DNA from: Bacillus pseudomycoides
GTDB taxonomy: Bacteria > Bacillota > Bacilli > Bacillales > Bacillaceae_G
Reading direction: 5' to 3'
DNA: 24,000 nucleotides
Assembly: GCF_022811845.1 (NCBI RefSeq)
Contig: NZ_CP064266.1
Span: forward strand, 3,586,314-3,610,313
A program made the translations under genes and the position numbers. Under the pieces are notes generated by a model. That model worked only from the letters and a program-made list of their open reading frames with translations, made no database searches and was not told the DNA's origin. The first letter of the stretch is position 1. Each line of letters starts with the position of its first letter. Positions 1 through 21,793 of this stretch are shown piece by piece.

Positions 1-2
1 AG

Positions 3-290
3 GCGAAAAAAGGAGCAACTATTGAAGATTTAGCATCAGCGATTGAATTGACTTATCAATCTATGAAACTAGGCTATCAACAACCACGTGCAAATCAATT
101 GATGGAGGACGTGTCTGCGGAAATGTTCCAAGACGGTGTAGAGTATTGGAAAGGAAAAGATATCAATAATGCATATAAATGCTTTGAATTTTTAACTCGG
201 GATCGATATGCAACAACTATTGATGGAACATTACGTGAAAGTGCAATGAAATATGTGGAACAAATTAAAGCCATGGATGCTCAAAAGTAA
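3..290 (+). CDS. 3' end of an ORF entering from the left edge (hypothetical protein, last ~95 aa)
   Basis: The frame is open from base 3 (AKKGATIEDLASAIELTYQSMKLGY...) to the TAA at 288-290. The Met at 48 has no RBS, so the gene probably starts upstream of the window. A hairpin follows at 302-334. Confidence 0.5.
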   Translation, partial: AKKGATIEDLASAIELTYQSMKLGYQQPRANQLMEDVSAEMFQDGVEYWKGKDINNAYKCFEFLTRDRYATTIDGTLRESAMKYVEQIKAMDAQK

Positions 291-301
291 ATATTTGTGA
301 A

Positions 302-334
302 GTTCGCCATCTTATCTCAGGTAAGATGGCGAAC
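302..334 (+). terminator. Stem-loop downstream of the first ORF (possible terminator, weak U-tract)
   Basis: gttcgccatctta (302-314) pairs perfectly with taagatggcgaac (322-334) around a 7-nt loop. The trailing sequence ctattctcatt is only moderately T-rich. Confidence 0.45.
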
Positions 335-360
335 CTATTCTCATTAAGGGGTGAAAGAGA

Positions 361-795
361 ATGAGTTTACTAGCAATTTGTCCGTTAGATGAGGCACTAG
401 TAGAAGCATTACAGAACGAAGAAAAAAGAGGGCATTTTTACGATGTTTTACAAAAATCAAATTTATACGTTGTTGCTTCTGTAGAAGGGGATACAAATAC
501 AGATGAAGACGGCAATTTGATTTCTACAGACAATACACAATTACAAATTCATTATTTTGAAATGGAAGAAGGACTCATGTTACCGCTTTATTCAGATTTA
601 AAGCATTTAGAAACGGTGATTCCAGAAGAATGTCCGTATGTTTGTATGAATGCTGTTGAATTATTCCAGATAGTAGATTTAGAGGCGAATGTGATTTTAA
701 ATCTAGGGACACCATTTCAAAAAATGTTTGTAAAAGAAGAAATCGAAGCTATTTGTGATGGTAGTATCTTTGATATTTTTTCTAAAGAAGTATAA
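361..795 (+). CDS. SseB-like small acidic protein, candidate secretion accessory or chaperone for the downstream toxin
   Basis: 144-aa ORF with a purine-rich RBS (aaggggtgaaagaga) before the ATG. The pattern F..VL..S.LYV....., G.MLPLYSD...L, NV.LN.G.PF...F..EEI matches my recollection of SseB N-terminal family proteins. It sits immediately 5' of the toxin gene. Confidence 0.45.
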   Translation: MSLLAICPLDEALVEALQNEEKRGHFYDVLQKSNLYVVASVEGDTNTDEDGNLISTDNTQLQIHYFEMEEGLMLPLYSDLKHLETVIPEECPYVCMNAVELFQIVDLEANVILNLGTPFQKMFVKEEIEAICDGSIFDIFSKEV

Positions 796-843
796 GTAAT
801 AATGGATGCAGTTCCTGCTCTTTTTGGTATAAAATAGAGGAAG

Positions 844-2148
844 GTGGGAGAAGGTTTGGAGATTAAAGTCAAACCCGAACAACTCGAACAAATTGCCAAA
901 AACATCTCAAAAATGCAGAGACACAGCCAGAATGTACAACAAGATCTTAATCAAGCGATGTTCAGTATTCAAATGCAGTGGCAAGGAGCAACGAGTCAGC
1001 GTTTTTACGGGGAGTATGTGCGATCGACGAAACTAATGGAAAGGTATATACATAACTTACAAGAAACAGAAAAAGATTTACGGCGCATTGCCCAAAAGTT
1101 TCGTCAAGCAGATGAAGAATATCAAAAAAAACAAGCAGAAAAGGCAAAAGAAACACCGAAAAAGAAAAAGAAAGAAGAAAAATCGTGGTGGGAAAAAGGG
1201 TTAGATGAAGCAGCGGAATTTTTCGGTGTAAATGATGCGATTAGAGCAGTTACAGGTAAAGACCCACGTACAGGTAAAGAGCTATCCACAAAAGAAAGAC
1301 TCATTGCGGCAGGGTGGACGCTTTTGAACATTATTCCGGTTGGAAAGGCCCTCAGTGTTGCTGGAAAAGCAATTAAGTATGGCGGGAAAATGGTCGTAGG
1401 AGCAATAGAAAAAGGCGGAAAAGCTCTTCTTGATGGAGCGAAGAAAGTATCAAGTAAGCTACATGAAGGCGTATCTTTCGTTGCTTCTAAAACGAAAAGT
1501 CTCGCTGATAAAGTAGGAGACCTGTGGAATAAAGGAAAAACGAAAGTTAAAAACGATTTTATAGAAGCAGATAAGGCATTCCATTATGCGATGAAAAAAT
1601 TGGGAGAGTATGTGCCGAAATCTGGTAGAGACCTTGCCTTTGAGACAGAAAGTGCAGGCAAGATTCCTGGTGGAGGAAAGAACCTGCTGAAAGATGCTTA
1701 TCAGTATGTGAAAGATACTGGGGAGAAGGTTTTTGGTAGTGGAACTGAAAGGATAAAATTTTCAGAAATGACGGTAGAAGAACAGTTGAAGCTAGCAAAA
1801 GAATATGCTAAGAAATCTCCAATAGAAATTCCTGAAACTGCTAAAACTAAAGCTCAATCAAAAAACGGGTATGAACAAATTTCATATAAGTGGAATGATG
1901 GTACTTATAAATATGAAGTTAGATGGCATACAAGGACACCTGGTGCTCCAGTTGAACAAGGGAATACATGGGTAATTCAAAGGACGATTCCAGGAAATGG
2001 TGGAGCGAAACCTCAAACATTTTTCAAAATAGGAGATAATGAGTGGACAGAAGCTTATAAATGGTATGAAGCAATTAAAGCAAGAAAGGATGGAATAGCT
2101 ACTCCTGAGCAAATAAGAATTCTAGATAAAGGACACTGGAAGGAGTAA
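844..2148 (+). CDS. Full-length WXG100-fused (T7SS-type) polymorphic toxin, C-terminal toxin type 1
   Basis: The N-terminal ~95 aa form a helical hairpin with W-x-G (FSIQMQWQGATSQRFYGEY). A Lys-rich linker follows, then a PT-TG-like segment (NDAIRAVTGKDPRTGKELSTKERLIAAGW), then a conserved pre-toxin region ending GEKVFGSG, then a variable tip from ~1744. The paralogue at 3723 starts at the TTG equivalent to 856 (GGGAG at 845-849 as RBS), so the true start is probably 856. Confidence 0.85.
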   Translation: MGEGLEIKVKPEQLEQIAKNISKMQRHSQNVQQDLNQAMFSIQMQWQGATSQRFYGEYVRSTKLMERYIHNLQETEKDLRRIAQKFRQADEEYQKKQAEKAKETPKKKKKEEKSWWEKGLDEAAEFFGVNDAIRAVTGKDPRTGKELSTKERLIAAGWTLLNIIPVGKALSVAGKAIKYGGKMVVGAIEKGGKALLDGAKKVSSKLHEGVSFVASKTKSLADKVGDLWNKGKTKVKNDFIEADKAFHYAMKKLGEYVPKSGRDLAFETESAGKIPGGGKNLLKDAYQYVKDTGEKVFGSGTERIKFSEMTVEEQLKLAKEYAKKSPIEIPETAKTKAQSKNGYEQISYKWNDGTYKYEVRWHTRTPGAPVEQGNTWVIQRTIPGNGGAKPQTFFKIGDNEWTEAYKWYEAIKARKDGIATPEQIRILDKGHWKE

Positions 2149-2154
2149 TATATT

Positions 2155-2535
2155 ATGATAAATGATAAATATTATATTGGTTTTGAAGGAGAAGTAGAAA
2201 TTAATTTAGTAAGAGGAGTCCAAGAAGAAAACAAATCTATATTTAAAATATGGAATGGTTATTTTGAAACAATTTTAGATAATTTATTAGATAATGATGT
2301 TCCTAAAGAAGGAATTATTAAAGAATATTTTCATCAAGAGGGTTGGTACGATGAATCCCCATGGCACGTGGAAGATATTAGTCTAACCATAAAACAATTT
2401 CGTATGTTCGATAATAATAAAGTGAGAAATTCAAGTTCTTTAAAGGAAGTATTACCTGAGTTAGTCACAGATATTATTGATTTTCTTGAACAAGCCAAAG
2501 TTAAAGAAGAAGATGTTTATATTGAATATGATTAA
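2155..2535 (+). CDS. Putative cognate immunity protein of toxin 844-2148
   Basis: 126-aa acidic ORF starting 7 nt after the toxin stop, with an AAGGAG RBS embedded in the toxin 3' end. This is the classic toxin-immunity arrangement. I did not recognise the family. Confidence 0.65.
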   Translation: MINDKYYIGFEGEVEINLVRGVQEENKSIFKIWNGYFETILDNLLDNDVPKEGIIKEYFHQEGWYDESPWHVEDISLTIKQFRMFDNNKVRNSSSLKEVLPELVTDIIDFLEQAKVKEEDVYIEYD

Positions 2536-2676
2536 CAAATGAAAGGATTAATCATTATGAAGTTAGAGATAGTGAAATAAAAAGTAATTTATTAATAATG
2601 GCGGAGTATCAGGGGGAAAAGGAAATTGTGGTAATATTTTTAAAATAGGTAAGGGAAATAAACTTTTAATTAGCTA

Positions 2677-2718
2677 AAAGCATTAAACCGATAAAATTTC
2701 TTAGGTTTAATGCTTTTT
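2677..2718 (+). terminator. Rho-independent terminator
   Basis: A 13-bp perfect stem, aaagcattaaacc (2677-2689) with ggtttaatgcttt (2704-2716), runs into a T-tract. Confidence 0.7.
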
Positions 2719-2821
2719 ATTTATTATTATTTTAGGGGATCTCCCGCTCAGAGGGAATTAGTTAAATACTTATTAACATAGGGATGCGAATATTAAAACT
2801 GAGGATTAATTCTTAAAAGAA

Positions 2822-3025
2822 ATGAGAACTTTTACAAAAGATGTTGAATTTGTGAATCCACCTGGATTTCACGGTGGAGAAGGGTCTACTACAGCTCATA
2901 ACCAAATACTACGTATTATTGATACGTCGGCAGATTATGAAACTTTTGTTAAGAGATTAAATAATTGGGCAAGCGATAGATTAAAAAATGGAAAAATGGA
3001 TTTACCAGAAGGATTAAGGAGGTAG
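2822..3025 (+). pseudogene. Orphan toxin C-terminal remnant (67-aa ORF) preceding an Imm22-like gene
   Basis: A short ORF (..PPGFHGGEGSTTAHNQILRIID..) ends 6 nt before an immunity-type gene. The frame is closed by a stop only 15 nt upstream of its ATG, and no N-terminal secretion or pre-toxin region is present. Confidence 0.4.
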
Positions 3026-3031
3026 CATAAT

Positions 3032-3424
3032 ATGAATGAAAAAGTATCAGTATGGATTGGGAATTTTGAGAGTAAAGCCGAGTTAATGGACTATATAAAT
3101 ATTGAATATACAGAAGACGGAGATAGTTTATCCTCAATATTTGAAAAAAACTTTCATTTAGATTATTACGATCGTGATTTGGTTGAGAAAAAATGGATTA
3201 GTCAACCGACAAATAATATTAGGGATTTATTGAAGGGTTTTTCATACTCCGATCAATTTATTAAACGATTTGATGTCATTAATCATGAAAAAGAATTTAA
3301 TACTACCATTCTGGTTTATAATCTTGAATATGATGCTCAAGAAACAAAGATTAAGTATAATAATAACGAAATGGAATTTATCGGTGTTGCCCAATATACT
3401 ATAGTTATTGATGATAGATGGTAA
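3032..3424 (+). CDS. Immunity 22 (Imm22)-like immunity protein
   Basis: AAGGAGG RBS. The N-terminus VSVWIGNFESKAELMDYINIEYTEDGDSLSSIFEKNF..DYYDRDLVE, and later LLKGFSYSDQFIKRF and ILVYNLEYD, match the remembered Imm22 signature (VS.WIGNF.S.EEL..Y....Y..DGD..S.F..DF). Confidence 0.65.
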   Translation: MNEKVSVWIGNFESKAELMDYINIEYTEDGDSLSSIFEKNFHLDYYDRDLVEKKWISQPTNNIRDLLKGFSYSDQFIKRFDVINHEKEFNTTILVYNLEYDAQETKIKYNNNEMEFIGVAQYTIVIDDRW

Positions 3425-3438
3425 ATTTCTAAACGTAA

Positions 3439-3716
3439 CAAAAAGAATCAGAAATCGACGCAGAACAAGCAGAATGTATTGGAGCGGATTTTAAGAGTAC
3501 TAATCTTACAAATGATAAATTTGAAAAATGCAAATTTATCAGAGGTAGATGCTAGAAATGCAGATTTAACAGGAGCGACCCTTTCAAAAACGGATTTTAC
3601 CGGTGCTAAACATTGACAATGTGGTTTGGAAGGGCGCAAATGTAGAAGGCGCCAAGTTTGACGAAAATGTGAGAAGTCTATTTAGAGGCTTATGTACACT
3701 TGATGAGATATATTGA
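3439..3716 (+). pseudogene. Decayed pentapeptide-repeat protein gene (N-terminally truncated, two frameshifts)
   Basis: Three successive frames read ECIGADFKSTNLTNDKFEKCKFI / VDARNADLTGATLSKTDFTGAK / NVVWKGANVEGAKFDENV..., which is an A(D/N)LxX-type 5-residue periodicity. The reading is interrupted by TAG (~3551) and TGA (~3614). There is no start codon, and the final TGA is at 3714-3716. Confidence 0.6.
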
Positions 3717-3722
3717 AAAGGT

Positions 3723-4856
3723 TTGGAGATTAAAGTCAAACCCGAACAACTCGAACAATTAGCCAAAAACATCTCAGAGATGCAGAGACATAGCCAGAAT
3801 GTACAACAAAATCTTAATCAAGCGATGTTCAGTATTCAAATGCAGTGGCAAGGAGCAACGAGTCAGCATTTTTATGGGGAGTATATGAAATCGACGAAAC
3901 TAATGGAAAGGTATATACATAACTTACAAGAAACAGAAAAAGATTTACGGCGCATTGCCCAAAAGTTTCGTCAAGCAGATGAAGAATATCAAAAGAAACA
4001 AGCAGAAAAAGTAAAAGAAACACCGAAAAAGGAAAAGAAAGAAGAAAAATCGTGGTGGGAAAAAGGATTAGATGAAGCAGCGGAATTTTTCGGTGTAAAT
4101 GATGCGATTAGAGCAGTTACAGGGAAAGACCCACGTACAGGCAAAGAACTATCCACAAAAGAAAGACTCATTGCGGCAGGGTGGACGCTTCTGAACATTA
4201 TTCCGGTTGGAAAAGTCCTTAGTACTGCTGGAAAAGTAATTAAGTATGGCGGAAAAATCCTTCTTGATGGAGTGAAGAAAGTATCAAGTAAGCTACATGA
4301 AGGTGTATCTTTCTTGGCATCAAAAGCAAAAGGGCTAAGTAATAAAATAGGGGATCTATGGAATAAAGGGAAAACAAAAGTTAAAAACGATTTTATAGAA
4401 GCAGATAAGGCATTCCGTTATGCGATGAAAAAATTGGGAGAGTATGTGCCGAAATTTGGTAGAGGCCCTTCTCCTGTAATGGAAGGTGTAGGTGCTGTTT
4501 CTGGTGGAGGAAAGCAGTCTCTGAAGGATGATGTGATTCAATTTATGAAGGAGACTGGGGAGAAGATTTTTGGTAGTGGTCTTAAAGGCTGGAATTTAAA
4601 ACCGAGTAATATCCCAAACATGCCGAGACAGGAGCTCCTTGATTCTGTACCAAACAACTGGAAAATAAATGATAATAATGGATTTGCGCACATAAGAGAT
4701 GAAAATGGGTTAATGCGTATGAGAATAGATCCACCAGATAAGGTAACTAAATATGATCATGTTCACATATATGATGAGGCAGGGAATTCATTAGATGTCA
4801 ATGGAAACATTGTAGATAGTAAAAGCCCGGCTGCACATATTCCATATAAAAAGTGA
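3723..4856 (+). CDS. Full-length WXG100-fused (T7SS-type) polymorphic toxin, C-terminal toxin type 2 (DHxH motif)
   Basis: The TTG start is homologous to position 856 of the first copy. The WXG100-like hairpin (MQWQGATSQHFYGEY), PT-TG-like segment and pre-toxin region are near-identical to 844-2148, apart from a 33-nt deletion. The variable tip starts at ~4581 (..MRMRIDPPDKVTKYDHVHIYDEAGNSLDVNGNIVDSKSPAAHIPYKK). Confidence 0.8.
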   Translation: MEIKVKPEQLEQLAKNISEMQRHSQNVQQNLNQAMFSIQMQWQGATSQHFYGEYMKSTKLMERYIHNLQETEKDLRRIAQKFRQADEEYQKKQAEKVKETPKKEKKEEKSWWEKGLDEAAEFFGVNDAIRAVTGKDPRTGKELSTKERLIAAGWTLLNIIPVGKVLSTAGKVIKYGGKILLDGVKKVSSKLHEGVSFLASKAKGLSNKIGDLWNKGKTKVKNDFIEADKAFRYAMKKLGEYVPKFGRGPSPVMEGVGAVSGGGKQSLKDDVIQFMKETGEKIFGSGLKGWNLKPSNIPNMPRQELLDSVPNNWKINDNNGFAHIRDENGLMRMRIDPPDKVTKYDHVHIYDEAGNSLDVNGNIVDSKSPAAHIPYKK

Positions 4857-4866
4857 GGTAAAAATT

Positions 4867-5238
4867 ATGAATGCTAAACAAATACAGGATAAAGTGGAAG
4901 AATTACATTATTGGGATTCTAGGGTGATAGAGTTATCTAGTGATTATTTTGCAGATGAAATAACATTAGCTTATGATAATAGCACATCAAAAGTCGTTTA
5001 CCGGTTTGTTGGTTGCTATAAATCCAATTTCAACCATTGGATTAGTTTTGAGAAAGAAAAACCTTATAGAGATTTATCTTTAGCTCAGGTACCGTATTTT
5101 CTTCAAGATGTAGAAATTAGTGAAATTGAGCAAGAAAATAAAAAGCTATATTCTTGTAAAGTGCTCATGCCACCTATGGAATTAGAAATATGGTGTACGG
5201 ATATCGAAGTTAGTGAAGTAATGAATAGTGCACAGTAA
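4867..5238 (+). CDS. Putative cognate immunity protein of toxin 3723-4856
   Basis: 123-aa ORF starting 10 nt after the toxin stop, with a GAGG RBS. Its N-terminal motif YWDSRVIELS resembles LHDSVVESIT of the immunity ORF at 9203, which follows a toxin tip of the same family. Confidence 0.65.
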   Translation: MNAKQIQDKVEELHYWDSRVIELSSDYFADEITLAYDNSTSKVVYRFVGCYKSNFNHWISFEKEKPYRDLSLAQVPYFLQDVEISEIEQENKKLYSCKVLMPPMELEIWCTDIEVSEVMNSAQ

Positions 5239-5246
5239 CGACTCAA

Positions 5247-5280
5247 AAAGACAACTAGAAAATTTTTTCTAGTTGTCTTT
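5247..5280. terminator. Bidirectional terminator between convergent genes
   Basis: aaagacaactag (5247-5258) pairs with ctagttgtcttt (5269-5280) around an aaaatttttt centre. It has A/T tracts on both sides and lies between the ends of 4867-5238 (+) and 5324-5524 (-). Confidence 0.75.
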
Positions 5281-5323
5281 CGCTTATAATTTAATTCTCA
5301 AAGTCATCGGAATTGTCGGGAGT

Positions 5324-5524
5324 TCAATCGATAAGGTCACCCTCATCGTTAAACATCAATGTTTCGCATTGTTCAATTGTGTAAGGATTAGGATATTTGT
5401 TATCTCTTATTGTCTCTTGATATTTATCATAACAGAAATGGTCATCGTACCTTTTAAGAACCTTAGCAAGCTTCATTTTAGCTCGTAAATCTTCTACAGT
5501 ATTCATAATATAAGAGAACGTCAT
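5324..5524 (-). CDS. Small hypothetical protein (66 aa)
   Basis: The minus-strand ORF reads MTFSYIMNTVEDLRAKMKLAKVLKRYDDHF...DEGDLID. I chose the internal Met at 5524 (AAAGGGA RBS) rather than the hydrophobic, RBS-less extension to 5608. It ends at the bidirectional terminator. Confidence 0.4.
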   Translation of the reverse strand: MTFSYIMNTVEDLRAKMKLAKVLKRYDDHFCYDKYQETIRDNKYPNPYTIEQCETLMFNDEGDLID

Positions 5525-5766
5525 ATCCCTTTTCACTAACATTAAAAATTTGAATATAAATAGGGTTAAAGCTAATGTTTTAAATAAACAGCAGTTAAGT
5601 AGTGGCAAAAGATTAGATCTATATGATTCTATTAAAGAATACCATATTTAAATTTGGATATTAAAAACATTAATGGATTAAAATAGGAAATCTCTGTCTA
5701 GAAAGAATAGGAGATGTTACTTCATATTTATCTAAAAATTATAGGAATTGTACAATAAGAATTGAA

Positions 5767-6024
5767 ATGATTTGGCGGTAGAAATTAAAAAATATTATTT
5801 CTATCATCAATGAAAAATTAAAGCTTTTAATTAGAGAAGAGCGACTCCTAGAAAATATGAGGAATCAGATTTTATTTGATATAATGAATATTGCACTATA
5901 TCAAAGCTATTATCCAGTATTAAAATCAGAATTTTATGAATGTTTATATCGAATATATGTAAATGGATATATTCCTTGTGGTTGGAATGGAAAATATCCT
6001 AAAGGAAATATAAAAGTAATTTGA
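5767..6024 (+). pseudogene. Small immunity-like ORF interrupted by an in-frame TAG at codon 5
   Basis: ATG at 5767 (MIWR), then TAG at 5779-5781, then the same frame stays open to 6024 (KLKNIISIINEKLKLLIREERLLENMRNQILFDIMNIALYQSYYPVLKSEFYECLYRIYVNGYIPCGWNGKYPKGNIKVI). An internal ATG at 5857 could give a 55-aa product. Confidence 0.3.
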
Positions 6025-6030
6025 TGAGGA

Positions 6031-6441
6031 GTGAAATTTTGGGAAGAAAATAAAGATTTTATGAATAAAAGTATAAAAATTGCGAATAGTCTTGTGGATG
6101 AAGTTTTTAAAATTGATAGTAATGATGAACAAGAAAAGCAGGTTCTAGGTGCATATCTCTTTGGAATGATTAATGGTTTAGGACAGGAAATGAATATTAA
6201 TCCTGTTGAGGTACAAGGTGCTATGATTCAAATATTGAGTGGGAAAATGGCTTATTCTTTAGAGATTGCTGTTCAGTTTAGTCAGTGTCTTATTAATTCT
6301 ACAGATAGAACTTTTCACCCCACTATGTTTGCTATAATTCATAGGGGATTGGAAGGATACTATATGTATAAAGATGGAAAGAATAATGAATTAACACGAG
6401 ATTTTCAGGAAATTATTGAAGCTGTCAAGGAAGAAAGCTAA
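6031..6441 (+). CDS. Hypothetical protein, possibly an immunity protein (Imm-like, IIHRG motif)
   Basis: 136-aa ORF with a GTG at 6031 directly after GAGGAG (too close for a good RBS) and an alternative ATG at 6061. The sequence QVLGAYLFGMINGLGQ...FAIIHRGLEGYYMY recalls an immunity family, but I cannot name it with certainty. Confidence 0.45.
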   Translation: MKFWEENKDFMNKSIKIANSLVDEVFKIDSNDEQEKQVLGAYLFGMINGLGQEMNINPVEVQGAMIQILSGKMAYSLEIAVQFSQCLINSTDRTFHPTMFAIIHRGLEGYYMYKDGKNNELTRDFQEIIEAVKEES

Positions 6442-6683
6442 TTTTAATTCTAGAGAGAATTATTCTGATGAAAATACAAGTTATTATATGCTATTTTTCT
6501 AGATTCTAAGGGCAAAGAAAGAAAAACTTAAAAGAACAAGTTTAAATGTTAAAGCAAACGGTGGGCATGTTAAGCTAGAGGTGCTCGAGGAACTGACTAA
6601 GGTTGTTAGCTATTTTGTGAGTTTCTCGATCACCGGTAAAGAAACATATCCACTTTACAACGTTATTTAATGAAGTTTTTGTT

Positions 6684-6760
6684 TATACGATCTGAACTGG
6701 AAGATGTAATTAGTCTTCCAGTTTTTTATTGAACTGAAAAAATAGATATAATTAAAAAAG
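6684..6760 (+). repeat. Inter-cassette repeat copy A (terminator hairpin + TATAAT)
   Basis: tatacgatctGAACTGGAAGATgtaattagTCTTCCAGTTttttattgaactgaaaaaatagaTATAATtaaaaaag. The stem is ctggaaga/tcttccag followed by a T-run, and TATAAT lies at 6747-6752. Confidence 0.85.
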
Positions 6761-6836
6761 GAAATGTAGAATAGTTAGAAAAACGATGAAAAAATTGTTT
6801 AGAAGTTTTAACTAGCAAATAAATTTTTACATGTAA

Positions 6837-7771
6837 ACACCAGTATCAGGGGATATACAGGTAAAAGAACTCGTCATTGGCAAAGAACTATCCGCAAAAG
6901 AAAGACTTATTGCGGCAGGCTGGACGGTTCTGAACATTATTCCGGTTGGAAAAGTCCTTAGTACTGCTGGAAAAGTAATTAAGTATGGCGGAAAAATGGT
7001 CGTAGAAGCAGTAGAGAAAGGCGGAAAAGCCCTTCTTGATGGAGCGAAGAAAGTATCAAGTAAAGTAAAAGAAGGTGTATCTTTCGTTGCTTCTAAAACG
7101 AAAAGTTTCGCTGATAAAGTAGGGGACCTATGGAATAAAGGGAAGATAAAGGTTAAAACCGATTTTATAGAAGCAGATAAGGCATTCCGTTATGCTATCA
7201 AAAAATTAGGAGAGTATGTGCCGAAATCTGGTAGAGGCCTTGCCTTTGAGACAGAAAGTGCAGGCAAGATTCCTAGTGGAGGAAAGAACCTGCTGCAAGA
7301 TGCGTATCAGTATGTGAAAGATACTGGTGAGAGGGTTTTTGGTAGTGGTGAGAAGGATGTTGTTAAGGGAGCTAACGGTTTAAAAATTCCTCAGGGATTA
7401 ACAGAAGAACAGTTTTCCAATATGAGTAACTTATTAAAGAGTGAATTCGGAAACATAAGTGATGATATTTTTGTACAAGGTAGTAGAGCAGGAGGAACTG
7501 CAAAATTAACATCAGATATTGATATAGGTGTCCGTGTAAGTGAAGAGCAATTTGAGGGACTTGTAAAAAAAAATTTGGAACTCCAAATCCAGGTTCTGTA
7601 AAAGAAAGAACCATGCTTCATGCTTTAGAGACTGGAAAAATTCAAGCGGGTGAAGCTAAATTGAGAGGACTCCGAAAAGAAATAGAAAATCTATTAGGGA
7701 TAGAGGCTGATGTCTCTATAATTTTAGAGCGTGGAAAATTTGATAACCCACCATATATACCTATTAAATAA
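6837..7771 (+). pseudogene. Orphan toxin cassette 1: PT-TG/pre-toxin region + nucleotidyltransferase-like toxin tip, frameshifted
   Basis: It has no WXG100 domain and no start codon. The frame is open from 6837, and the degenerate PT-TG region has 1 extra nt near 6865-6880. The tip contains VQGSRAGGTAKLTSDIDIGV (the G-S-x10-D-x-D Pol-beta NTase signature). An A9 run at 7565-7573 shifts the frame: the ORF stops at 7601, but the frame reached by adding one A continues FGTPNPGSVKERTMLHALETGK...FDNPPYIPIK to the TAA at 7769-7771. Confidence 0.7.
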
Positions 7772-7784
7772 GGAGGAGTATAGG

Positions 7785-8158
7785 TTGGAAGATTTATATT
7801 GTAAAGTTTTTATAAATACTATTCAATCAATTGAAGAGTTAACTGAAAAAATTTCTGTTTGTTTACATTTGGAACATGATAAATTTTTTTCTATAGAAGG
7901 TGATTATTTCAGTGTTGATGTTATAAAAATAAAGAATTTGATGAAGAAAAATCGAAAGAATTTCCAGATGGCTTTCTTTACTTTCCATATTTTTTAGATA
8001 TTGATACATCTGATTATAATAAAAGCGGCGATTATAAAAAAGAAATCAGAAAATTGCTTGTGTTTTTGTGGGAAGAGAGTTATCAAGTAGTTGCCTCATG
8101 TGATTTTGAAAATGAGCTACCATATAAAGGTGGATATAACCAAAGAATAAATTATTGA
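7785..8158 (+). pseudogene. Immunity gene of orphan cassette 1, frameshifted
   Basis: AAGGAGG at 7770-7776, then TTG at 7785 (LEDLYCKVFINTIQSIEELTEK...). The frame breaks in an A5 run near 7922-7930. Adding one A restores ..DVIKNKEFDEEKSKEFPDGFLYFPYFLDIDTSDYNKSGDYKKEIRKLLVFLWEESYQVVASCDFENELPYKGGYNQRINY up to the TGA at 8156-8158. Confidence 0.55.
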
Positions 8159-8258
8159 AATTTATAATTGTAATTGCTTATTTTGCTAGAGTCTGAGGAA
8201 ATAGAAATGTAGAGATGATATAATTCTTTTTATAGTGTTATTTATAGGAGAATTTATC

Positions 8259-8330
8259 TATACGATTTGAACTGGAAGATGTGAATAATCTTCCAGTTTT
8301 TTTATTGGAATGGAAAAATATAATTAATAG
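8259..8330 (+). repeat. Inter-cassette repeat copy B
   Basis: tatacgatttGAACTGGAAGATgtgaataaTCTTCCAGTTtttttattggaatggaaaaaTATAATtaatag. It has the same hairpin and T-run, with TATAAT at 8319-8324. Confidence 0.85.
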
Positions 8331-8386
8331 AAAGAGATTTAAGTCATCTATGACAACTAAGAAACATTGTTAAAAGCTGCTATTAA

Positions 8387-9191
8387 GCAGCGGAATTTAT
8401 CAGTGTAAATGATGATATCAGAGCAGTTACAGGTACATATCCACGTACAGGCAAAGAGCTATCCACAAAAGAAAGACTCATTGCGGCAGGGTGGACGCTT
8501 CTGAACATTGTTCCGGTTGGAAAAGTCCTTAGTACTGCTGGAAAAGTAATTAAGTATGGCGGAAAAATCCTTCTTGATGGAGTGAAGAAAGTGTCAAGTA
8601 AGCTACATGAAGGCGTATCTTTCTTGGCATCAAAAGCAAAAGGGCTAAGTAATAAAATAGGGGATCTATGGAGTAAAGGGAAGACAAAGGTTAAAAATGA
8701 TTTTATAGAAGCTGGTAAGGAATTTCGTTATGCTATGAAAAAATTGGGAGAGTATGTGCCGAAATCTGGTAGAGGCCTTGCCTTTGAGACAGAAAGTGCG
8801 GGCAAGATTCCCAGTGGAGGAAAGAACCTGCTGCAAGATGCTTATCAGTATGTGAAAGATACTGGAGATAGGCTTTTGGGTAGGGAAAGTAGTAAGATAA
8901 AATATTCTTATAATAGTTTTACCAAAAGATCCAAGGGAGTTACTTAATCATGGGTGGAAAGATATAACACCTGAAGGAATGGCTAAAAACACCACTTCGA
9001 GAGAGTTTCTTGATCCAGATACAGGAATGAAGGTTAGATTTGATCCTGGGAAACCGGGAGCTAATGGCTTTGAAGGTAAAGACCATTATCATGTCCATAA
9101 TCCTAATAGTACTGGTAAGGGTGACTATTATTTGGATGTTAACGGTAAGCCTGTACCTAAAGGTTCAAAAGCGTCACACATTATACCATAA
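8387..9191 (+). pseudogene. Orphan toxin cassette 2: PT-TG/pre-toxin region + DHxH-type toxin tip, frameshifted
   Basis: The frame opens immediately after the TAA at 8384-8386 with AAEFISVNDDIRAVTGTYPRTGKELSTKERLIAAGW, and there is no start codon or WXG100 domain. The reading frame ends at 8947. The overlapping frame, open from 8901, continues LPKDPRELLNHGWKDITPEGMAKNTTSREFLDPDTGMKVRFDPGKPGANGFEGKDHYHVHNP...LDVNGKPVPKGSKASHIIP. That is one extra nt somewhere in 8901-8921, for example the T4 run. Confidence 0.7.
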
Positions 9192-9202
9192 GGAGGAGCT
9201 TT

Positions 9203-9562
9203 ATGAAAATAGTTGAGTTTTTAGAAAACTATAATTTACACGATAGTGTTGTAGAGAGCATAACTTTTTATCAAAATGAAAAAAGAGTTGTGATGGATAT
9301 GGACTTATGTAATTGGCTACAATCATTTTACGAGGATGGTGATCCAGAAATAAAGGTTGGTCAACTTGAATTTACTGAAGTAATATCATTCAAAACTGAA
9401 CCAAAAGTATTTACAATTAATAGTAATGAAATAATCGATGTTTCAGTATTAAGAATTGGTTCAGAAAATGAAACTGTTAAGTTTGTACTAACTAGTGAAG
9501 AGGATGTTATTATAGTAGAAATTGAAGCTGAAGGTGTAGATTGGTTTGAATGTGTAAATTAG
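9203..9562 (+). CDS. Immunity protein of orphan cassette 2
   Basis: AAGGAGG RBS, with the ATG 12 nt after the toxin-tip stop. The 119-aa acidic ORF has the N-terminal motif LHDSVVESITF, related to YWDSRVIELSS of ORF 4867. Confidence 0.65.
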   Translation: MKIVEFLENYNLHDSVVESITFYQNEKRVVMDMDLCNWLQSFYEDGDPEIKVGQLEFTEVISFKTEPKVFTINSNEIIDVSVLRIGSENETVKFVLTSEEDVIIVEIEAEGVDWFECVN

Positions 9563-9812
9563 AATTTACTCTTAAAGAATGTAAAATTGCTATTCTGCTA
9601 GATTTTAGGAAACAAAGAATTTTTAAAAGGATAAGATAGTCTAAATAGTGAACATGTGAATCTATAAAGTATTTGAGAGAATAAGCGGTGTTATTATTTT
9701 TATTAATTCTTTGGATGCCGAAAAAATAACATGCCAATAAAAGAAATTAACAGTAGTGTGAGAAAAGTGAAGTGACTGTTAGAAGTTTTATCGTGTTACT
9801 CGTTGGCTTATC

Positions 9813-9888
9813 TATATAATTTGAACTGGAAGATTAATTATATCTTCCAGTTTTTTATTGAACTAAAAAAATAGATATAATTAAAAGG
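9813..9888 (+). repeat. Inter-cassette repeat copy C
   Basis: tatataatttGAACTGGAAGATtaattataTCTTCCAGTTttttattgaactaaaaaaatagaTATAATtaaaagg, with TATAAT at 9876-9881. Confidence 0.85.
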
Positions 9889-9929
9889 AATAGGTGCAAG
9901 AAAAATATAAAAATATTTAAAAGTTTTGA

Positions 9930-10790
9930 TTGGCAACTGAATTTTTCAATGTAAACGACAGTATCATTGCGGCAGACTGGACGCTTTTGAATGTTACTCC
10001 GATTGGAAGAATTGGAAAAGGAATTAAATATGTCGGGAAAAAGGCTGGAAAAGCACTTCTTGATGTAGCGAAGAAAGTACCAAGTAAAGTAAAAGAAGGC
10101 GTATCTTTCGTTGCATCTAAAACGAAAAGTCTCGTTGATAAAGTAGGAGACCTGTGGAATAAAGGGAAGACAAAGGTTAAAAATGATTTTATAGAAGCAG
10201 ATAAGGCATTCCGTTATGCTATGAAAAAATTAGGAGAGTATGTGCCGAAATCTGGTAGAGACCTCGCCTTTGCTACAGAAAGTGCAGGCAAGATTCCTGG
10301 TCGAGGAAAGAACCTGCTGAAAGATGCTTATCAGTATGTGAAAGAGACTGGTGAGAAGGTTTTTGGTAGTGGTGAGAAGAACGGTGGTAAGGAAGCAAGC
10401 GGAGCTGGGAAGTTAGGAACTGGTAATATCGGGGATTTTAGTAATATACAGGGAGCGACCATTGATGATATTTTATCAAGAATTCCAAAGGATGCCCCAA
10501 AACGTGATCTAAGTCCACAACCAGGAAAAGTGACAGAAGGATTTGAATATAAATGGGAAGCTCCAGATGGTTCAACTATGAGAGTTAGAGTTCATGGTCC
10601 AGATGCCTCAGCACCGGCTGGAAGTAATGCTGCTAATGGTTGGATTGTAAGAGTGCAAAAAGGGAAAAAGTATTTTGATCCTATTTCAGGGGAGTTTCAA
10701 CCACCAGGCATAGTTAAACCAAATAGTTCACATTATAATGAGGGATTAGCAAATAGTACTTATATTCCAATCCAGCCACCAAAAAAATAA
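9930..10790 (+). CDS. Orphan toxin cassette 3: uninterrupted ORF lacking WXG100, toxin tip related to type 1
   Basis: The ORF runs from TTG 9930 (MATEFFNVNDSIIAADWTLLNV...). Relative to the full-length genes, about 60 nt of the PT-TG core (RAVTGKDPRTGKELSTKERL) are deleted. The pre-toxin region is conserved. The tip, FEYKWEAPDGSTMRVRVHGPDASAPAGSNAANGWIVRV, shares a motif with ISYKWNDGTYKYEVRWHTRTPGAPVEQGNTWVIQR of 844-2148. No credible RBS precedes 9930. Confidence 0.6.
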   Translation: MATEFFNVNDSIIAADWTLLNVTPIGRIGKGIKYVGKKAGKALLDVAKKVPSKVKEGVSFVASKTKSLVDKVGDLWNKGKTKVKNDFIEADKAFRYAMKKLGEYVPKSGRDLAFATESAGKIPGRGKNLLKDAYQYVKETGEKVFGSGEKNGGKEASGAGKLGTGNIGDFSNIQGATIDDILSRIPKDAPKRDLSPQPGKVTEGFEYKWEAPDGSTMRVRVHGPDASAPAGSNAANGWIVRVQKGKKYFDPISGEFQPPGIVKPNSSHYNEGLANSTYIPIQPPKK

Positions 10791-10804
10791 AGGAGTAAGG
10801 CAAT

Positions 10805-11245
10805 ATGAATTTTGAAGAAAAGTTAAATAAAATATTGAATGATTCTAGACTAGACAAGCAAGAAAAATTAAATAGTTTAGGAGCTATAGGAGATATTTTA
10901 GAATATGGGGATATCAGCAGAGATGAAGCAATTCAAGAAATGAATGTTCTAATAAAATATGTTGTTGAACAAAATGATAATGATATCAAAGAAGAGATTT
11001 TAAATATTATTTTGAATGGAGAAAATTCACGTAATGTTGATAAGGAATTAGATTTAGAACCAATTGTTTTGAATTTAAGTAAATTTAATGATGAATGTAT
11101 TAGTTACATTTTATCAATGTTAGGGTATTCTGGAAAAGAAAAATACAGAAAAGTAATTGAACAATTTAAGAATAGTCCTCGATTGGAGGAAGATGTAGAA
11201 GATGCGTTATTCGAGTTAGATTATAGAGTGAAAAATCAAAAGTAA
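10805..11245 (+). CDS. Immunity protein of orphan cassette 3 (helical-repeat-like)
   Basis: AAGGAG RBS, with the ATG 14 nt after the toxin stop. It is a 146-aa acidic, helix-rich ORF (..EEILNIILNGENSRNV..ISYILSMLGYSGKEKY..). I did not recognise the family. Confidence 0.6.
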   Translation: MNFEEKLNKILNDSRLDKQEKLNSLGAIGDILEYGDISRDEAIQEMNVLIKYVVEQNDNDIKEEILNIILNGENSRNVDKELDLEPIVLNLSKFNDECISYILSMLGYSGKEKYRKVIEQFKNSPRLEEDVEDALFELDYRVKNQK

Positions 11246-11580
11246 GAAACCACTTTTTCTAGCTTCTGGGGACAATAGTAAGAAGTTGAAAGATTGAACT
11301 TCTCTAAAATACCTATCAAATAAGTAGTCAATAGCTATGTTATAGGAAAATGTGGTGTCTATTGGCTATTATCATTTTATGTAACAGTTAATAGAAGACA
11401 CTAGTTTTATTTTTAGCAATTTATATAAGATGGATTTTAGTAATTTGGTGTTAAAAATATAGATTTTGATTCTACAATTATATGATAGCTTCATTTATAG
11501 TAGTGAATAGTATTGTTAGTTTGCTAGATTATGAGAGTAAACTAGCAAGATAAGAGCAAGGTTAATATAGAAAATGGCTG

Positions 11581-11655
11581 AGAATTTGAACTGGAAGATG
11601 TAGATAATCTTCCAGTTTTTTTATTTAAGTGAAAAAATAGATATAATTAAAAGGG
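11581..11655 (+). repeat. Inter-cassette repeat copy D
   Basis: agaatttGAACTGGAAGATgtagataaTCTTCCAGTTtttttatttaagtgaaaaaatagaTATAATtaaaagggg, with TATAAT at 11642-11647. Confidence 0.85.
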
Positions 11656-11707
11656 GAAATATGGAAAGGGAAATTACGACGCATTGTTAAAAATTTTTAT
11701 CAAGTAA

Positions 11708-11914
11708 CTGAATTTTTCCATAAACGTCAGTATCAGGGGCTTTACAGGTAAAGACCAACGACCTACAAAAGAAAGACTCATTGCGGCAGGCTGGACGCTT
11801 TTAAACTTTGTACCAATTGGAAAAGCCGCGAGTCTCGCTGGAAAAGCAATTAAGTATGGCGGAAAAATGGTTGTAGGAGCAGTAGGGAAAGCTGCCAAAG
11901 CCCATTATACTTAA
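11708..11914 (+). pseudogene. Orphan toxin cassette 4: truncated stub (PT-TG remnant only, no toxin tip)
   Basis: It reads ..INVSIRGFTGKDQRPTKERLIAAGWTLLNFVPIGKAASLAGKAIKYGGKMVVGAVGKAAKAHYT then stops at 11912-11914. It has a 21-nt deletion in the TG core and an upstream frameshift, and homology to the other cassettes ends at ~11890. Confidence 0.65.
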
Positions 11915-12168
11915 TATGTGCACATCAAAATTTGGAGGTAGCTACGATGATACTAGAGAGTGGTGGGGATGTAAATATTAGAGATAAGTTTTGAAATAAT
12001 GCATTATGGAGTGCAGTTTTAAATTGTAAGGGGAAATATTATGATATGGTTGAGCTTTTGATAAGAAAAAATCCGGATGTAACGACTAAAAATAAAGTAG
12101 GAAAATCCCCTTTAGATTTTGCAAAGCAGGTAAATAATAAGCGGTTAATTAATATACTAGAAAATTAG
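11911..12168 (+). pseudogene. Ankyrin-repeat protein remnant (3' part, in-frame TGA)
   Basis: The frame reads LICAHQNLEVATMILESGGDVNIRDKF, then TGA at 11992-11994, then NNALWSAVLNCKGKYYDMVELLIRKNPDVTTKNKVGKSPLDFAKQVNNKRLINILEN. This shows ANK-like periodicity (..LL..G.DVN..D..G..PL..A). It has no start codon and is fused directly to the orphan-4 stub. Confidence 0.55.
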
Positions 12169-12289
12169 AATTTAAATTATAAAGTAGAATCGATAATGTC
12201 ATTTTGGAGAAACAATAACATTCTAGTTTCTTTTCAAAATTGATCTAATTGATTTTTAAAAATTAATTAAAAGTTATTGGAGGATAATT

Positions 12290-12838
12290 ATGAAGAGTAA
12301 TGCCGAAGCTTTTATAGAAGGATTAGAAGAGTTGTTTGGAGAAGCAGATGCAATAAAAAAGATTAATACTAAAAATGGAGATACGCCAATTCATGTGTTT
12401 TTTTATCGTGATTTACCTGAAGAAGGTATGATGACATCTATTACTTATGGACTATCAGAAGCAAACCATCCAAATTGGAAAAACGGAAAACCAGAAATTA
12501 TTCTAACACTAGAGACTCAAGATGAAAATTGGGGATTAGCAACAGCGTATTTTGCGTCACAATTTAAAGGAGAAAAAAATTTCTCTTACGGTTCACTGTT
12601 TACTTTAGATACTCCCATTTCACATGAATCTGAAATGGTTGGGTTCTTTGTTTTTGCTCCTTCAATTCTAAGTAAAGAATACTCAGAAATTAAAACACCA
12701 AATGGATCAATACATTTAGTTGGTATGTATCCAATCTATAAAGAAGAGATTAAATTGTATCAAGCGATTGGATTGGAGGAGTTTTGGCGTATGGAGGGTT
12801 TTGATTTATATAATGTAAAGAGAAAAAAATTAGTATAA
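12290..12838 (+). CDS. SUFU (suppressor of fused)-like immunity protein
   Basis: GGAGG RBS and a 182-aa ORF. The pattern TPIHVFFYRDLPEEGMMTSITYGLSE...PEIILTLE...NWGLATAYFA...MVGFFVFAPSIL...IHLVGMYPIYKEEI..Y...G.EEFW fits the bacterial SUFU-domain immunity family as I remember it. Confidence 0.6.
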   Translation: MKSNAEAFIEGLEELFGEADAIKKINTKNGDTPIHVFFYRDLPEEGMMTSITYGLSEANHPNWKNGKPEIILTLETQDENWGLATAYFASQFKGEKNFSYGSLFTLDTPISHESEMVGFFVFAPSILSKEYSEIKTPNGSIHLVGMYPIYKEEIKLYQAIGLEEFWRMEGFDLYNVKRKKLV

Positions 12839-21753: not shown

Positions 21754-21793
21754 TCGTAGTAATTTCAAAAGAACTTATATTCAGAATATTAGA

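Follow-up and report, generated by a model that had tools for sequence, protein, structure and literature searches.

A variable polymorphic toxin/immunity island, very probably attached to a type VII secretion cluster, in Bacillus pseudomycoides

The stretch of DNA analyzed here (the window) comprises 24,000 nt of Bacillus pseudomycoides, NZ_CP064266.1 positions 3,586,314-3,610,313, forward strand. We are confident that it carries a variable polymorphic toxin/immunity island attached to the type VII secretion cluster of this species. The island contains two full-length genes with a fused WXG100 domain (F1, 844-2148, and F2, 3723-4856), each followed by a small acidic gene (imm1 and imm2), and four 5'-truncated copies, here called orphans 1 to 4 (O1 to O4). 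The locus is a well-preserved case of an already known system, in which the fused WXG100 domain, PT-TG, orphans, and immunity genes are all established features; WXG-type trafficking domains, PT-TG, and toxin cassette arrays with immunity genes were described in 2011-2012 (PMC3113570, PMC3482391). Every element that an earlier sequence-only reading of this DNA had described was found at or near where that reading placed it. The WXG100 and PT-TG profile matches that it anticipated exist, and the locus differs between strains rather than being fixed. We rejected the explanation that the repeats are an assembly artefact because the same architecture recurs in several independent assemblies.

Results

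Full-length genes and their tips

The comparison loci were the close relatives L001, L011 (the sister strain, CP128119.1), and L012; the more distant B. cereus-group species L003-L007; the B. arachidis loci L008 and L009; a Listeria LXG locus (L013); and Paenibacillus amylolyticus (L014, CP121451.1). The two full-length genes of the window and their immediate partners are as follows.

844-2148, + strand: F1, toxin at the expression site (434 aa; the RefSeq start is TTG 856, giving 430 aa)
859-1116, + strand: WXG100 domain of F1, followed by a Lys-rich linker
1177-1368, + strand: PT-TG of F1, followed by the pre-toxin region up to FGSG at 1732-1743
1744-2145, + strand: tip of F1
2155-2535, + strand: imm1, candidate cognate immunity gene for the F1 tip (126 aa, isoelectric point [pI] 4.39, Shine-Dalgarno sequence, 6-nt gap)
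2676-2717, + strand: terminator-like hairpin after the F1-imm1 pair (-16.3 kcal/mol, then a T-rich run)
3723-4856, + strand: F2, displaced full-length paralogue (377 aa)
3726-3983, + strand: WXG100 domain of F2
4044-4229, + strand: PT-TG of F2
4569-4580, + strand: FGSG of F2
4581-4853, + strand: tip of F2
4867-5238, + strand: imm2, candidate immunity gene for the F2 tip (123 aa, pI 4.56, Shine-Dalgarno sequence, 10-nt gap)
5247-5280, + strand: hairpin after imm2

Profile searches upheld the claim of two full-length paralogues. F1 and F2 match Pfam WXG100 (E 2.2e-18, 66.7 bits, and E 6e-18, 65.3 bits, full-length model), Pfam PT-TG (E 2.3e-17, 63.2 bits, and E 5.6e-18, 65.1 bits), and NCBIfam TIGR03930 (78.1 and 77.5 bits, E 4e-22), for which the curated cut-offs are 27.3, 23.5, and 44.85 bits. 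The WQG motif lies at 979-987 in F1 and 3846-3854 in F2. The LXG domain (PF04740) gave no Pfam match in F1 or F2 at E <= 0.1; the trafficking domain is thus a fused WXG100 hairpin rather than LXG, as had been proposed. RefSeq already annotates F1 (as "WXG100 family type VII secretion target", 100% identical), F2, and the O3 open reading frame (ORF) at 9930-10790.

The first ~300 codons of the two genes had been called near-identical, a generous description of an N-terminal part that is indeed shared: the proteins are 82.5% identical across ~298 aa, and the DNA is 86% identical, reaching 95% over the first 300 nt. Past FGSG the divergence is complete; the tips have no mutual similarity, and each gene is closely followed by a small acidic ORF, both in line with the sequence-only reading. 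The shared N terminus is found in more than 1,100 homologues in the B. cereus group; the best 120 of 1,183 homologues all combine WXG100 with PT-TG and carry at least 12 different Pfam toxin tips, among them AHH, WHH, LHH, Colicin-DNase, deaminase, EndoU, Ntox15, and GH-E. A common N-terminal trafficking part with differing C-terminal toxin domains is what defines a polymorphic toxin in the sense of PMC3482391. Identity between the window and L001 and L012 ends at 1742, the FGSG junction. The tips of the homologues and the strain comparison thus bear out the view that the locus is variable at the tip.

The Shine-Dalgarno sequence of F1, AGGTGG, lies 8 nt before TTG 856. Homology between F1 and F2 starts 8 nt before the F2 start codon, and AGGTGG is absent at F2, where the tail of a pentapeptide-repeat pseudogene (reported by three-frame translation to end 10 nt before the F2 start) takes the place of F1's Shine-Dalgarno sequence. 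The SseB-like gene that stands before F1 has no counterpart ahead of F2, and the hairpin at 2676-2717 parts F2 from the F1 unit. In functional terms, F2 is better regarded as the first, untruncated orphan.

The F1 tip belongs to no Pfam family. It is 74-78% identical to the C termini of LXG proteins (Listeria monocytogenes, Shouchella, B. halotolerans) and, in the same range, to those of WXG100 proteins (Paenibacillus) and of DUF4280 (PAAR-like), DUF4157 (annotated "eCIS core domain"), PrsW, and peptidoglycan-binding proteins. An AlphaFold2 model built from 30 sequences (pLDDT 89.4, pTM 0.81) consists of one helix, a six-stranded sheet, and two helices; a Foldseek search with this model found no PDB match, and the modeled tip could be a toxin fold without a solved relative. 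The imm1 product is 58% identical to that of the gene directly after a Listeria LXG toxin with an F1-type tip and 45% identical to that of the gene directly after a Paenibacillus WXG100 toxin with such a tip. Because the pair is kept across these two genera and two kinds of carrier, the comparison supports the F1 tip and imm1 as a candidate cognate toxin/immunity pair. An F1-type tip is carried by a WXG100 toxin of P. amylolyticus (within L014 3011-7702) that has no PT-TG match; a 267-aa gene with weak TPR matches lies upstream of it and five small genes, including a SUKH-4 gene, lie downstream, and within its 4-kb flanks this toxin is apparently not beside a type VII cluster.

The tips of F2 and O2 form one small family (E 1.7e-5 between the two) with an invariant W, HxH, S, and H and no Pfam model, which also occurs at an Rhs C terminus in Snodgrassella. 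Almost all of its database members (P0241-P0275) are short ORFs of 90-280 aa with no recognized N-terminal domain, which suggests that most of the known members may be orphan fragments or belong to carriers whose trafficking domains have gone unannotated. A relationship to Ntox30, suspected from (A/S/T)HIP-like endings, was dropped after profile-profile comparison gave a probability of 0.1%. In L011, imm2 is 100% identical and lies directly after that strain's 377-aa toxin gene.

Genes of the immunity type occupy the position expected of them, directly downstream of a toxin domain, and are marked by Shine-Dalgarno sequences, acidic pI (4.1-5.0), and Pfam families; Shine-Dalgarno sequences are absent from the truncated toxin parts. 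The island holds more than 10 immunity-type genes with their own ribosome-binding sites.

Orphan cassettes

Downstream of F2, the pre-toxin region recurs four times without the WXG100 part, as had been noticed from the sequence. The cassettes are the following.

6654-7771, + strand: O1 (terminator 6694-6724 and leader; pre-toxin 6864-7349; tip pieces 7350-7601 and 7586-7771)
7785-8155, + strand: O1 immunity gene (124 aa in L011, where it is intact), broken at 7924 by the loss of 1 nt from a homopolymer
8229-9191, + strand: O2 (terminator 8269-8299 and leader; pre-toxin 8387-8890; tip of the F2 family)
9203-9562, + strand: O2 immunity gene, intact (119 aa, pI 4.06, AGGAGG Shine-Dalgarno sequence; 100% identical in L011)
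9786-10790, + strand: O3 (terminator 9823-9853 and leader; pre-toxin 9930-10373; Ntox30 tip 10374-10787)
10805-11245, + strand: O3 immunity gene, intact (146 aa, pI 4.53)
11583-12165, + strand: O4 (terminator 11588-11618 and leader; 63-codon PT-TG stub 11714-11902)

A tblastn search with F1 located the pre-toxin copies at 6864-7361 (84%), 8387-8908 (76%), 9933-10652, and 11714-11902 (68%). All four lack both the WXG100 part and a Shine-Dalgarno sequence, which agrees with the earlier remark that they have no credible start. Their DNA is 72-90% identical to F1 or F2 over 126-560 nt, as expected of truncated copies in orphan modules, with 5' homology kept at 76-93% in O1-O3; the repeats are not due to chance, because self-blastn E-values run from 1e-23 down to 0. 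The stretch homologous to the full-length genes starts inside PT-TG (F1 residues 123-139), and the FGSG tip junction lies ~125 codons beyond PT-TG. PT-TG is therefore the truncation point and not the boundary of the exchangeable part. The proposal that it forms the cassette boundary holds for the 5' truncation but not for the tip junction, and the repeat unit itself starts ~150 nt earlier.

Each of the four toxin parts is damaged. The O1 tip is of the nucleotidyltransferase type (Pfam NTP_transf_2, E 1.6e-8 on the joined tip) and carries a frameshift common to the window and L011, while it is intact in L012. The O2 tip is split by a 1-nt insertion (an extra T) at 8917; its intact version is P0240 in L011. 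O3 has lost 63 nt (~21 codons) within PT-TG, and no Shine-Dalgarno sequence precedes its TTG at 9930. The O3 tip matches Ntox30 (Pfam E 7e-38) and, in a range given jointly for it and the F1 tip, is 74-82% identical to tips on LXG proteins. Ntox30 is a predicted metal-independent RNase with the conserved motif "RxH, R, THIP" (PMC3482391). The O3 tip reads STYIP where seven of seven LXG homologues and the B. arachidis remnant read STHIP; it belongs to the Ntox30 family but, with this replacement, probably lacks a predicted catalytic histidine. O4 is a stub fused by deletion to an ankyrin-repeat immunity fragment with an internal stop (11902-12165; Pfam Ank E 1.3e-9).

Most orphan immunity genes are intact, that of O1 being the exception; the product of the O3 gene is 96.6% identical to that of the gene beside the Ntox30 remnant in B. 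arachidis L008. Several orphan tips occur on full-length toxins elsewhere, namely, those of the stub at 2813-3025 and the deaminase stub (described below), Ntox30 on LXG proteins, and F2, which is the expression-site gene in L011. Six indels separate the window from L011 (5543, 5685, 5743, 5786, 7924, and 8917), all in homopolymer runs and four of them within 250 nt of apparently non-coding DNA between imm2 and the Imm48 gene; these sites may be hotspots of slippage or sequencing errors in one of the two assemblies. The array had been called unusually dense, a claim we do not retain: relatives hold comparable arrays, and cassette arrays have been described as typical (PMC3482391). The frameshifts in the O1 and O2 tips and the O1 immunity gene, the O3 deletion and His-to-Tyr change, the terminator-leader unit, and the elements past 12838 are additions to the sequence-only reading.

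All four orphans open with a conserved unit of ~150 nt that comprises a hairpin, a T run, and an A-rich leader. The hairpin has an identical 12-bp stem, AACTGGAAGAT...ATCTTCCAGTT, with a predicted energy of -15.7 to -18 kcal/mol, and is followed by six or seven T; the leader contains ATTGAACTGAAAAAATAGATATAATTAAAA, of which TATAAT is invariant, and the gap from the hairpin to the start of homology to the full-length genes is ~110 nt. A scan picked up the hairpin pattern at four places in the window but in none of 100 shuffles, and 12 further copies were found in five other genomes, each directly upstream of a 5'-truncated pre-toxin start. In an Rfam search, no family matched the hairpin-leader; the sole match in the window is a T-box. 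We also considered and rejected a sigma-70 promoter within the leader, since the consensus scan did not flag TATAAT and no acceptable -35 element lies at 16-18 nt (TTGAAC lies 12 nt upstream); for want of that element, a promoter here is speculation.

Tentatively, and against what we think likely, the terminator-leader unit may play an active part in how the cassettes work instead of being an inert leftover. Three roles are conceivable: shielding the truncated toxin parts from transcription that starts upstream, supplying a promoter that keeps orphan immunity genes expressed, and, together with the pre-toxin repeat, giving each cassette two homology arms for double-crossover replacement.

Recombination and strain comparison

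In alignment, the six pre-toxin copies are mosaics (maximum chi-square test, five triplets, permutation p = 2e-4 each). O2 tracks F2 for ~330 columns (97-99%, with a common 33-nt deletion) and then F1 and O1 (~90% versus 63% to F2), and O1 likewise tracks F2 first (96.7%) and then F1 (91.7% versus 81.7%).

The strongest evidence comes from the sister strain L011, which is 99.5% identical to window 3715-10372 over 6.66 kb, with 31 differences. In L011, a 377-aa F2-type gene lies directly after the SseB-like gene, behind an F1-type Shine-Dalgarno sequence, and the 2,867-bp block 848-3714, which in the window holds F1, imm1, a stub, an Imm22 gene, and the pentapeptide pseudogene, is absent. Of these differences, five lie within the first 77 nt of F2 (3717-3791), and at all five L011 equals the window's F1; another 13 cluster at 10261-10370. 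Past 10370, the counterpart in L011 of the window's Ntox30 tip and 146-aa partner is an unrelated tip followed by a gene of 211 aa. Because the differences cluster in these two segments, both breakpoints can be placed in conserved 5' sequence, one in the WXG100-coding 5' end and the other in the late pre-toxin region. The first would change the expression-site tip and the second would replace an orphan cassette, a comparison that supports tip exchange by recombination. That orphan-to-main recombination may change the expressed tip is suggested by comparison, through the mosaic copies and the difference between the two strains. Among the related loci compared (L001, L011, and L012), different tips stand behind the full-length 5' part, the point that the suggested alignment across B. 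cereus-group genomes had been meant to examine.

Upstream genes and the secretion apparatus

Two genes of the window lie upstream of F1.

48-290, + strand: 3' end of the last large gene in the type VII cluster (895-928 aa, function unknown)
361-795, + strand: SseB-like gene (144 aa, pI 4.06, Pfam SseB E 3e-18)

The gene order in close relatives is an EssC-type ATPase, an 89-aa WXG100 protein, an 890-aa kinase/TPR protein, an 895-928-aa protein, the 144-aa SseB-like protein, and the toxin. The first 847 nt of the window are 90-95% identical to the loci in L001, L011, and L012, and the gene order is common to L003-L007; window 151-1742 aligns to L001 9296-10854 at 90.6%, and the 928-aa gene of L001 ends at 9435, which corresponds to window 290. 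Where the covered DNA reaches, the small WXG100 gene lies no more than ~7.5 kb upstream in L001, L012, L011, and L003-L007; the EssC and kinase genes are present in L001 and L012 and the kinase gene also in L011. Through the synteny of its relatives, the toxin gene is thus linked to a type VII cluster.

Between the kinase and SseB-like genes lies a large gene that encodes 928 aa in L001 (6649-9435), 900 aa in L011 (1829-4531), and 895 aa in L012 (6747-9434); the protein has a weakly hydrophobic N terminus and no Pfam domain. Window 1-150 (versus L001) and 1-300 (versus L011) are unaligned, so the C-terminal end of this gene is also strain variable.

The SseB-like gene directly precedes the toxin gene in nine of nine B. 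cereus-group loci that include the toxin start and is 84-97% conserved. Its product is a candidate chaperone or targeting factor and could be a dedicated targeting chaperone of WXG100-fused toxins in T7SSc (described below). A search of PDB sequences found no relative of it, and a single-sequence structure model was unusable (pLDDT 37.7).

The sequence-only reading had assigned the locus to the b-type type VII secretion system (T7SSb) and suggested a check for upstream type VII genes. An EssC-type ATPase is indeed encoded there in relatives, but the part of the layout covered does not match a T7SSb. This ATPase has 1,336 aa with FtsK_SpoIIIE in three stretches, and the stretch examined, residues 137-1336, contains no transmembrane segment; because its membrane helices must lie in the first 136 residues, there is no room for two N-terminal FHA domains. 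The cluster further encodes a single small WXG100 protein (89 aa, E 3.6e-21) and a kinase/TPR protein whose Pkinase domain spans 36-237 (38-276 by the Tyr/Ser-Thr kinase model) and is followed by one transmembrane segment (503-521) and by TPR repeats at the C terminus. The T7SSb set, an EssC with N-terminal FHA domains, an EssB pseudokinase, and EsaA, is not found in the covered part of the relatives' cluster, nor do Lap1/Lap2-type partners (DUF3130/DUF3958) lie upstream of the toxin, where the SseB-like gene stands; the Listeria LXG locus L013 does have DUF3130 upstream.

The c-type system (T7SSc) is defined in Garrett et al. (2024, PMC11217815) by an FHA-less TscC ATPase, a single TscA WXG100 protein, and a TscD membrane Ser/Thr kinase, with B. 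anthracis and Paenibacillus among its carriers; the same paper notes a toxin/immunity pair at the B. anthracis T7SSc locus. As far as that definition goes, the relatives have all three, including a TscD with a cytoplasmic N-terminal kinase domain. From three of seven core components within the DNA covered, the adjoining apparatus is a probable T7SSc; the other four, TscB (YukD-like), TscE (vWA), TscF (PPM phosphatase), and TscG (EspG-like), would lie further upstream.

Extent of the island and neighboring genes

Because the right border is conserved in relatives and further stubs and immunity genes lie beyond 12838, the variable island spans roughly 844 to 21,300 rather than 844-12,838. Its remaining elements and right border are as follows.

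2813-3025, + strand: orphan tip stub, last 67-70 codons of a toxin tip
3032-3424, + strand: Imm22-family immunity gene, partner of this stub (Pfam DUF4284/Imm22 E 1.5e-25; AGGAGG Shine-Dalgarno sequence)
3470-3716, + strand: pentapeptide-repeat pseudogene (two frameshifts; Pfam Pentapeptide E 3e-9 on the joined reading)
5857-6024, + strand: small ORF of unknown role, just upstream of the Imm48 gene
6031-6441, + strand: Imm48-family immunity gene without a toxin part (Pfam Imm48 E 2e-48)
12290-12838, + strand: SUFU-family immunity gene (182 aa; Pfam SUFU E 7e-12)
16471-16980, + strand: orphan immunity gene
17003-17251, + strand: deaminase tip stub (Pfam Toxin-deaminase E 1.7e-15)
17189-17440, - strand: C-terminal half of an IS200-type transposase fragment (Y1_Tnp E 3.5e-17), overlapping the end of the deaminase stub
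20796-21236, + strand: SUKH/SMI1-KNR4 immunity gene near the right edge (Pfam SUKH_6 E 9e-24; 59% identical to L001 and L009 array genes)
21790-22039, + strand: T-box leader at the right border (Rfam RF00230, 126.6 bits)
22157-23497, + strand: SNF-family (sodium:neurotransmitter-symporter) transporter at the right border (Pfam SNF)

The Imm22, SUFU, Ank, and Pentapeptide matches that had been foreseen were all found, with Imm48 in addition. The stub at 2813-3025 matches, at 83-84% identity, the last 67 aa of full-length WXG100-PT-TG toxins of 450-464 aa (e.g., P0058 and P0065), and the deaminase stub is 61% identical to full-length WXG100-PT-TG-deaminase toxins (e.g., P0086); the IS200-type fragment is probably an insertion remnant that truncated the latter. 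The gene at 16471-16980 is 46% identical to the one that immediately follows full-length toxin P0004 in L012 and to array genes in L009 and L011. As for the right border, B. tropicus, B. nitratireducens, and B. dicomae have a 94%-identical transporter ~2-6 kb beyond their toxin gene.

Several other genes lie in the right-hand part. An alpha/beta-type small acid-soluble spore protein gene occurs within the island at 14745-14963 (Pfam SASP E 1.8e-18) and has a 97%-identical copy in B. arachidis L009. Two small paralogous ORFs on the - strand (15413-15670 and 15833-16138) have similar N termini (TKELEDEEIVVYQYYPS and TKELDNSDYAIYSFGPS), belong to no Pfam family, and may likewise be of the immunity type. 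The rest are a 353-aa protein with a hydrophobic N terminus and no Pfam match (13192-14253), a 434-aa lipoprotein-like protein on the - strand that has a signal-like N terminus with a Cys (17915-19219; DUF5068 E 7e-19), and a 139-aa ORF with a homing-endonuclease-associated HNH_repeat match of E 2e-4, below the cut-off (19665-20084).

Discussion

We propose that the SseB-like gene, F1, and imm1 would form the expressed unit of this island. By analogy with work on B. anthracis, the WXG100 hairpin of F1 would pair with the cluster's small WXG100 protein and be exported by the EssC-type ATPase. In that organism, secretion of Ba-EsxW, in which WXG100 is joined to a large C-terminal domain, requires Ba-EsxB (PMC3297441, PMC4570534), and EsxB secretion is independent of the ATPase (PMC3297441). 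The C-terminal tip would then poison related bacteria that do not make the small acidic immunity protein of the adjacent downstream gene. F2 would be a complete toxin gene, either a former or an alternative one, whose ribosome-binding site has been lost. The ~0.5-0.9 kb of conserved 5' sequence common to all copies would serve as a substrate for homologous recombination, which would swap the expression-site tip and replace cassettes within the array. Because most orphan toxin parts decay while most immunity genes stay, the array may serve chiefly to record past tips and to store immunity genes, with a role as tip reservoir coming second. Toxins with WXG and PT-TG (PMC3113570, PMC13483458) and a cassette-recombination model (PMC3482391) have been described before.

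Several points weigh against this interpretation. The secretion, toxicity, and immunity functions of the window's proteins are predictions, and the type VII genes lie outside the 24 kb, so that the linkage comes from synteny in relatives; T7SS-dependent secretion of WXG-containing toxins has been stated as not shown (PMC13483458). With damage in four of four orphan toxin parts, a ready-to-use tip reservoir is unsupported in this strain. The window-specific frameshifts at 7924 and 8917 could be either slippage mutations or assembly errors, since all six indels sit in homopolymer runs. The F1/F2 difference between the two strains could have arisen in either direction: a deletion by recombination between F1 and F2 would produce the L011 state, and import of a foreign segment into the window's lineage would be the other route. 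Import fits somewhat better, because the left flank is only 95% identical and the first 77 nt of F2 are divergent.

The damage raises the question of whether the orphans are still spare tips at all. They may instead be decaying leftovers, kept for immunity genes that guard against the toxins of neighbors, an account that we regard as a real possibility, if on the doubtful side. The frameshifts in O1 and O2, the deletion and His-to-Tyr change in O3, and the reduction of O4 to a stub all speak for it, as do the stubs at 2813-3025 and 17003-17251, which lack any 5' homology, the retention of Shine-Dalgarno sequences and reading frames in the immunity ORFs, and the lone Imm48, SUFU, SUKH, and 16471-16980 immunity genes. 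However, the 5' homology of O1-O3 (76-93%) is mosaic, so these copies took part in recombination, and both the O3 cassette and the expression-site tip changed between strains that are otherwise 99.5% identical. The O1 tip is intact in L012 and the O2 tip in L011, and the frameshift in O1's own immunity gene shows that immunity genes are not uniformly kept. What had been read as silent, exchangeable cassettes are thus 5'-truncated toxin/immunity cassettes downstream of the full-length genes, as described, but since all four toxin parts are damaged, most of them are relics rather than ready spares.

Two further accounts would remove the antibacterial function or the orphan status. That the WXG100-fused proteins are virulence or host-interaction factors, a role initially considered for the Esx proteins of B. 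anthracis, seems to us very improbable. Garufi and colleagues reportedly found in 2008 that infected guinea pigs made antibodies to B. anthracis EsxB, EsxP, and EsxW, and the C-terminal function of such proteins could not be deduced (PMC3297441). Against a host-directed role stand the tightly linked small acidic gene after every tip, the movement of tip and gene together across genera, and the nature of the family's tips (nucleases, deaminases, and RNase-like domains), together with the presence of Imm22, Imm48, SUKH, SUFU, and Ank, a signature of inter-bacterial polymorphic toxins (PMC3482391). Still harder to credit is that the 5'-truncated copies are independent PT-TG toxin genes with internal starts, even though RefSeq annotates 9930-10790 as a 286-aa Ntox30 protein (P0121) and many PT-TG proteins without a recognized trafficking domain have been argued not to be truncations (PMC13483458). 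Here the candidate starts all lack Shine-Dalgarno sequences, a strong terminator lies ~100-150 nt upstream of each copy, all frames contain stops shortly before the homology begins, it is the middle of F1 and F2 and not an N terminus that the DNA matches, and frameshifts are tolerated.

The antibacterial polymorphic toxin island that we favor has close counterparts. B. anthracis EsxW, EsxL, EsxP, EsxQ, and EsxV (Garufi et al. 2008, as summarized in PMC3297441 and PMC4570534) come from the same bacterial group and likewise combine an N-terminal WXG100 with a large C-terminal domain, the secretion partner being the cluster's 90-aa WXG100 protein; B. anthracis homologues are among the best matches to the F1/F2 family, at 54-65% identity. 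In contrast to the present locus, those proteins were studied as secreted antigens whose C-terminal function is unknown, and that description does not include tips, immunity genes, or orphan arrays. WXG trafficking, PT-TG, a variable toxin, an immunity gene, and standalone cassettes all recur in the WXG/PT-TG polymorphic toxins (Zhang, Iyer, and Aravind 2011, PMC3113570; PMC3482391; PMC13483458), where Ntox30 is listed with T7SS (WXG, LXG), and a 2026 survey (Pandoomain, PMC13483458) places WXG among the six most abundant PT-TG architecture groups. These papers work at the level of a catalogue and do not describe terminator-leader heads, the displaced full-length copy, or the strain switch of this array; our literature search found no description of orphan arrays of B. 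cereus-group WXG100 loci specifically.

Like the LXG toxins of T7SSb (Enterococcus faecalis OG1RF, PMC7790226; B. subtilis, PMC8321402; Streptococcus intermedius Tel, PMC5555719), these proteins have a helical N-terminal targeting domain, a variable tip, and a downstream immunity gene, and the F1 and Ntox30 tips have close relatives on LXG proteins. Orphan modules with 5' homology have been documented in type VII loci for E. faecalis LXG toxins (PMC7790226), and, as in LXG orphan modules, 5'-homologous fragments here occur as full-length toxins elsewhere. Unlike T7SSb LXG loci, the island has no LXG, an SseB-like gene instead of upstream Lap1/Lap2 (DUF3130-type) genes, and an apparatus that is not T7SSb-like. 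The likeness to T7SSc loci lies in the EssC-type ATPase apparently without FHA, the single small WXG100 protein, and the membrane Ser/Thr kinase; the SseB-like and 895-928-aa genes are not named among the T7SSc core components in the accessible part of PMC11217815. Rhs/CdiA orphan modules (Poole et al. 2011 and Koskiniemi et al. 2014, as cited in PMC7790226) are, according to that citation, also truncated core pieces without start signals that can recombine with the main gene and change the expressed tip. They differ in carrier and route (type VI or type V secretion, in Gram-negative bacteria), whereas here each orphan bears a terminator and leader.

For domain surveys, the locus is a caution that a protein annotated as a PT-TG toxin but lacking a trafficking domain can be an orphan fragment, as with the 286-aa Ntox30 protein. 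The F1 tip is a widespread uncharacterized toxin domain with a confidently predicted fold and would be a reasonable biochemical target. The points worth keeping are this tip, the T7SSc context, the SseB-like neighbor, the terminator-leader, and the strain pair that captures tip exchange; with 99.5% identity across the array, that pair supports a recombination model that, for type VII toxins, has mostly been taken as given. In the B. cereus group, fused-WXG100 toxins appear to be tied to the kinase-containing T7SSc and not to T7SSb, with the SseB-like neighbor as a candidate partner.

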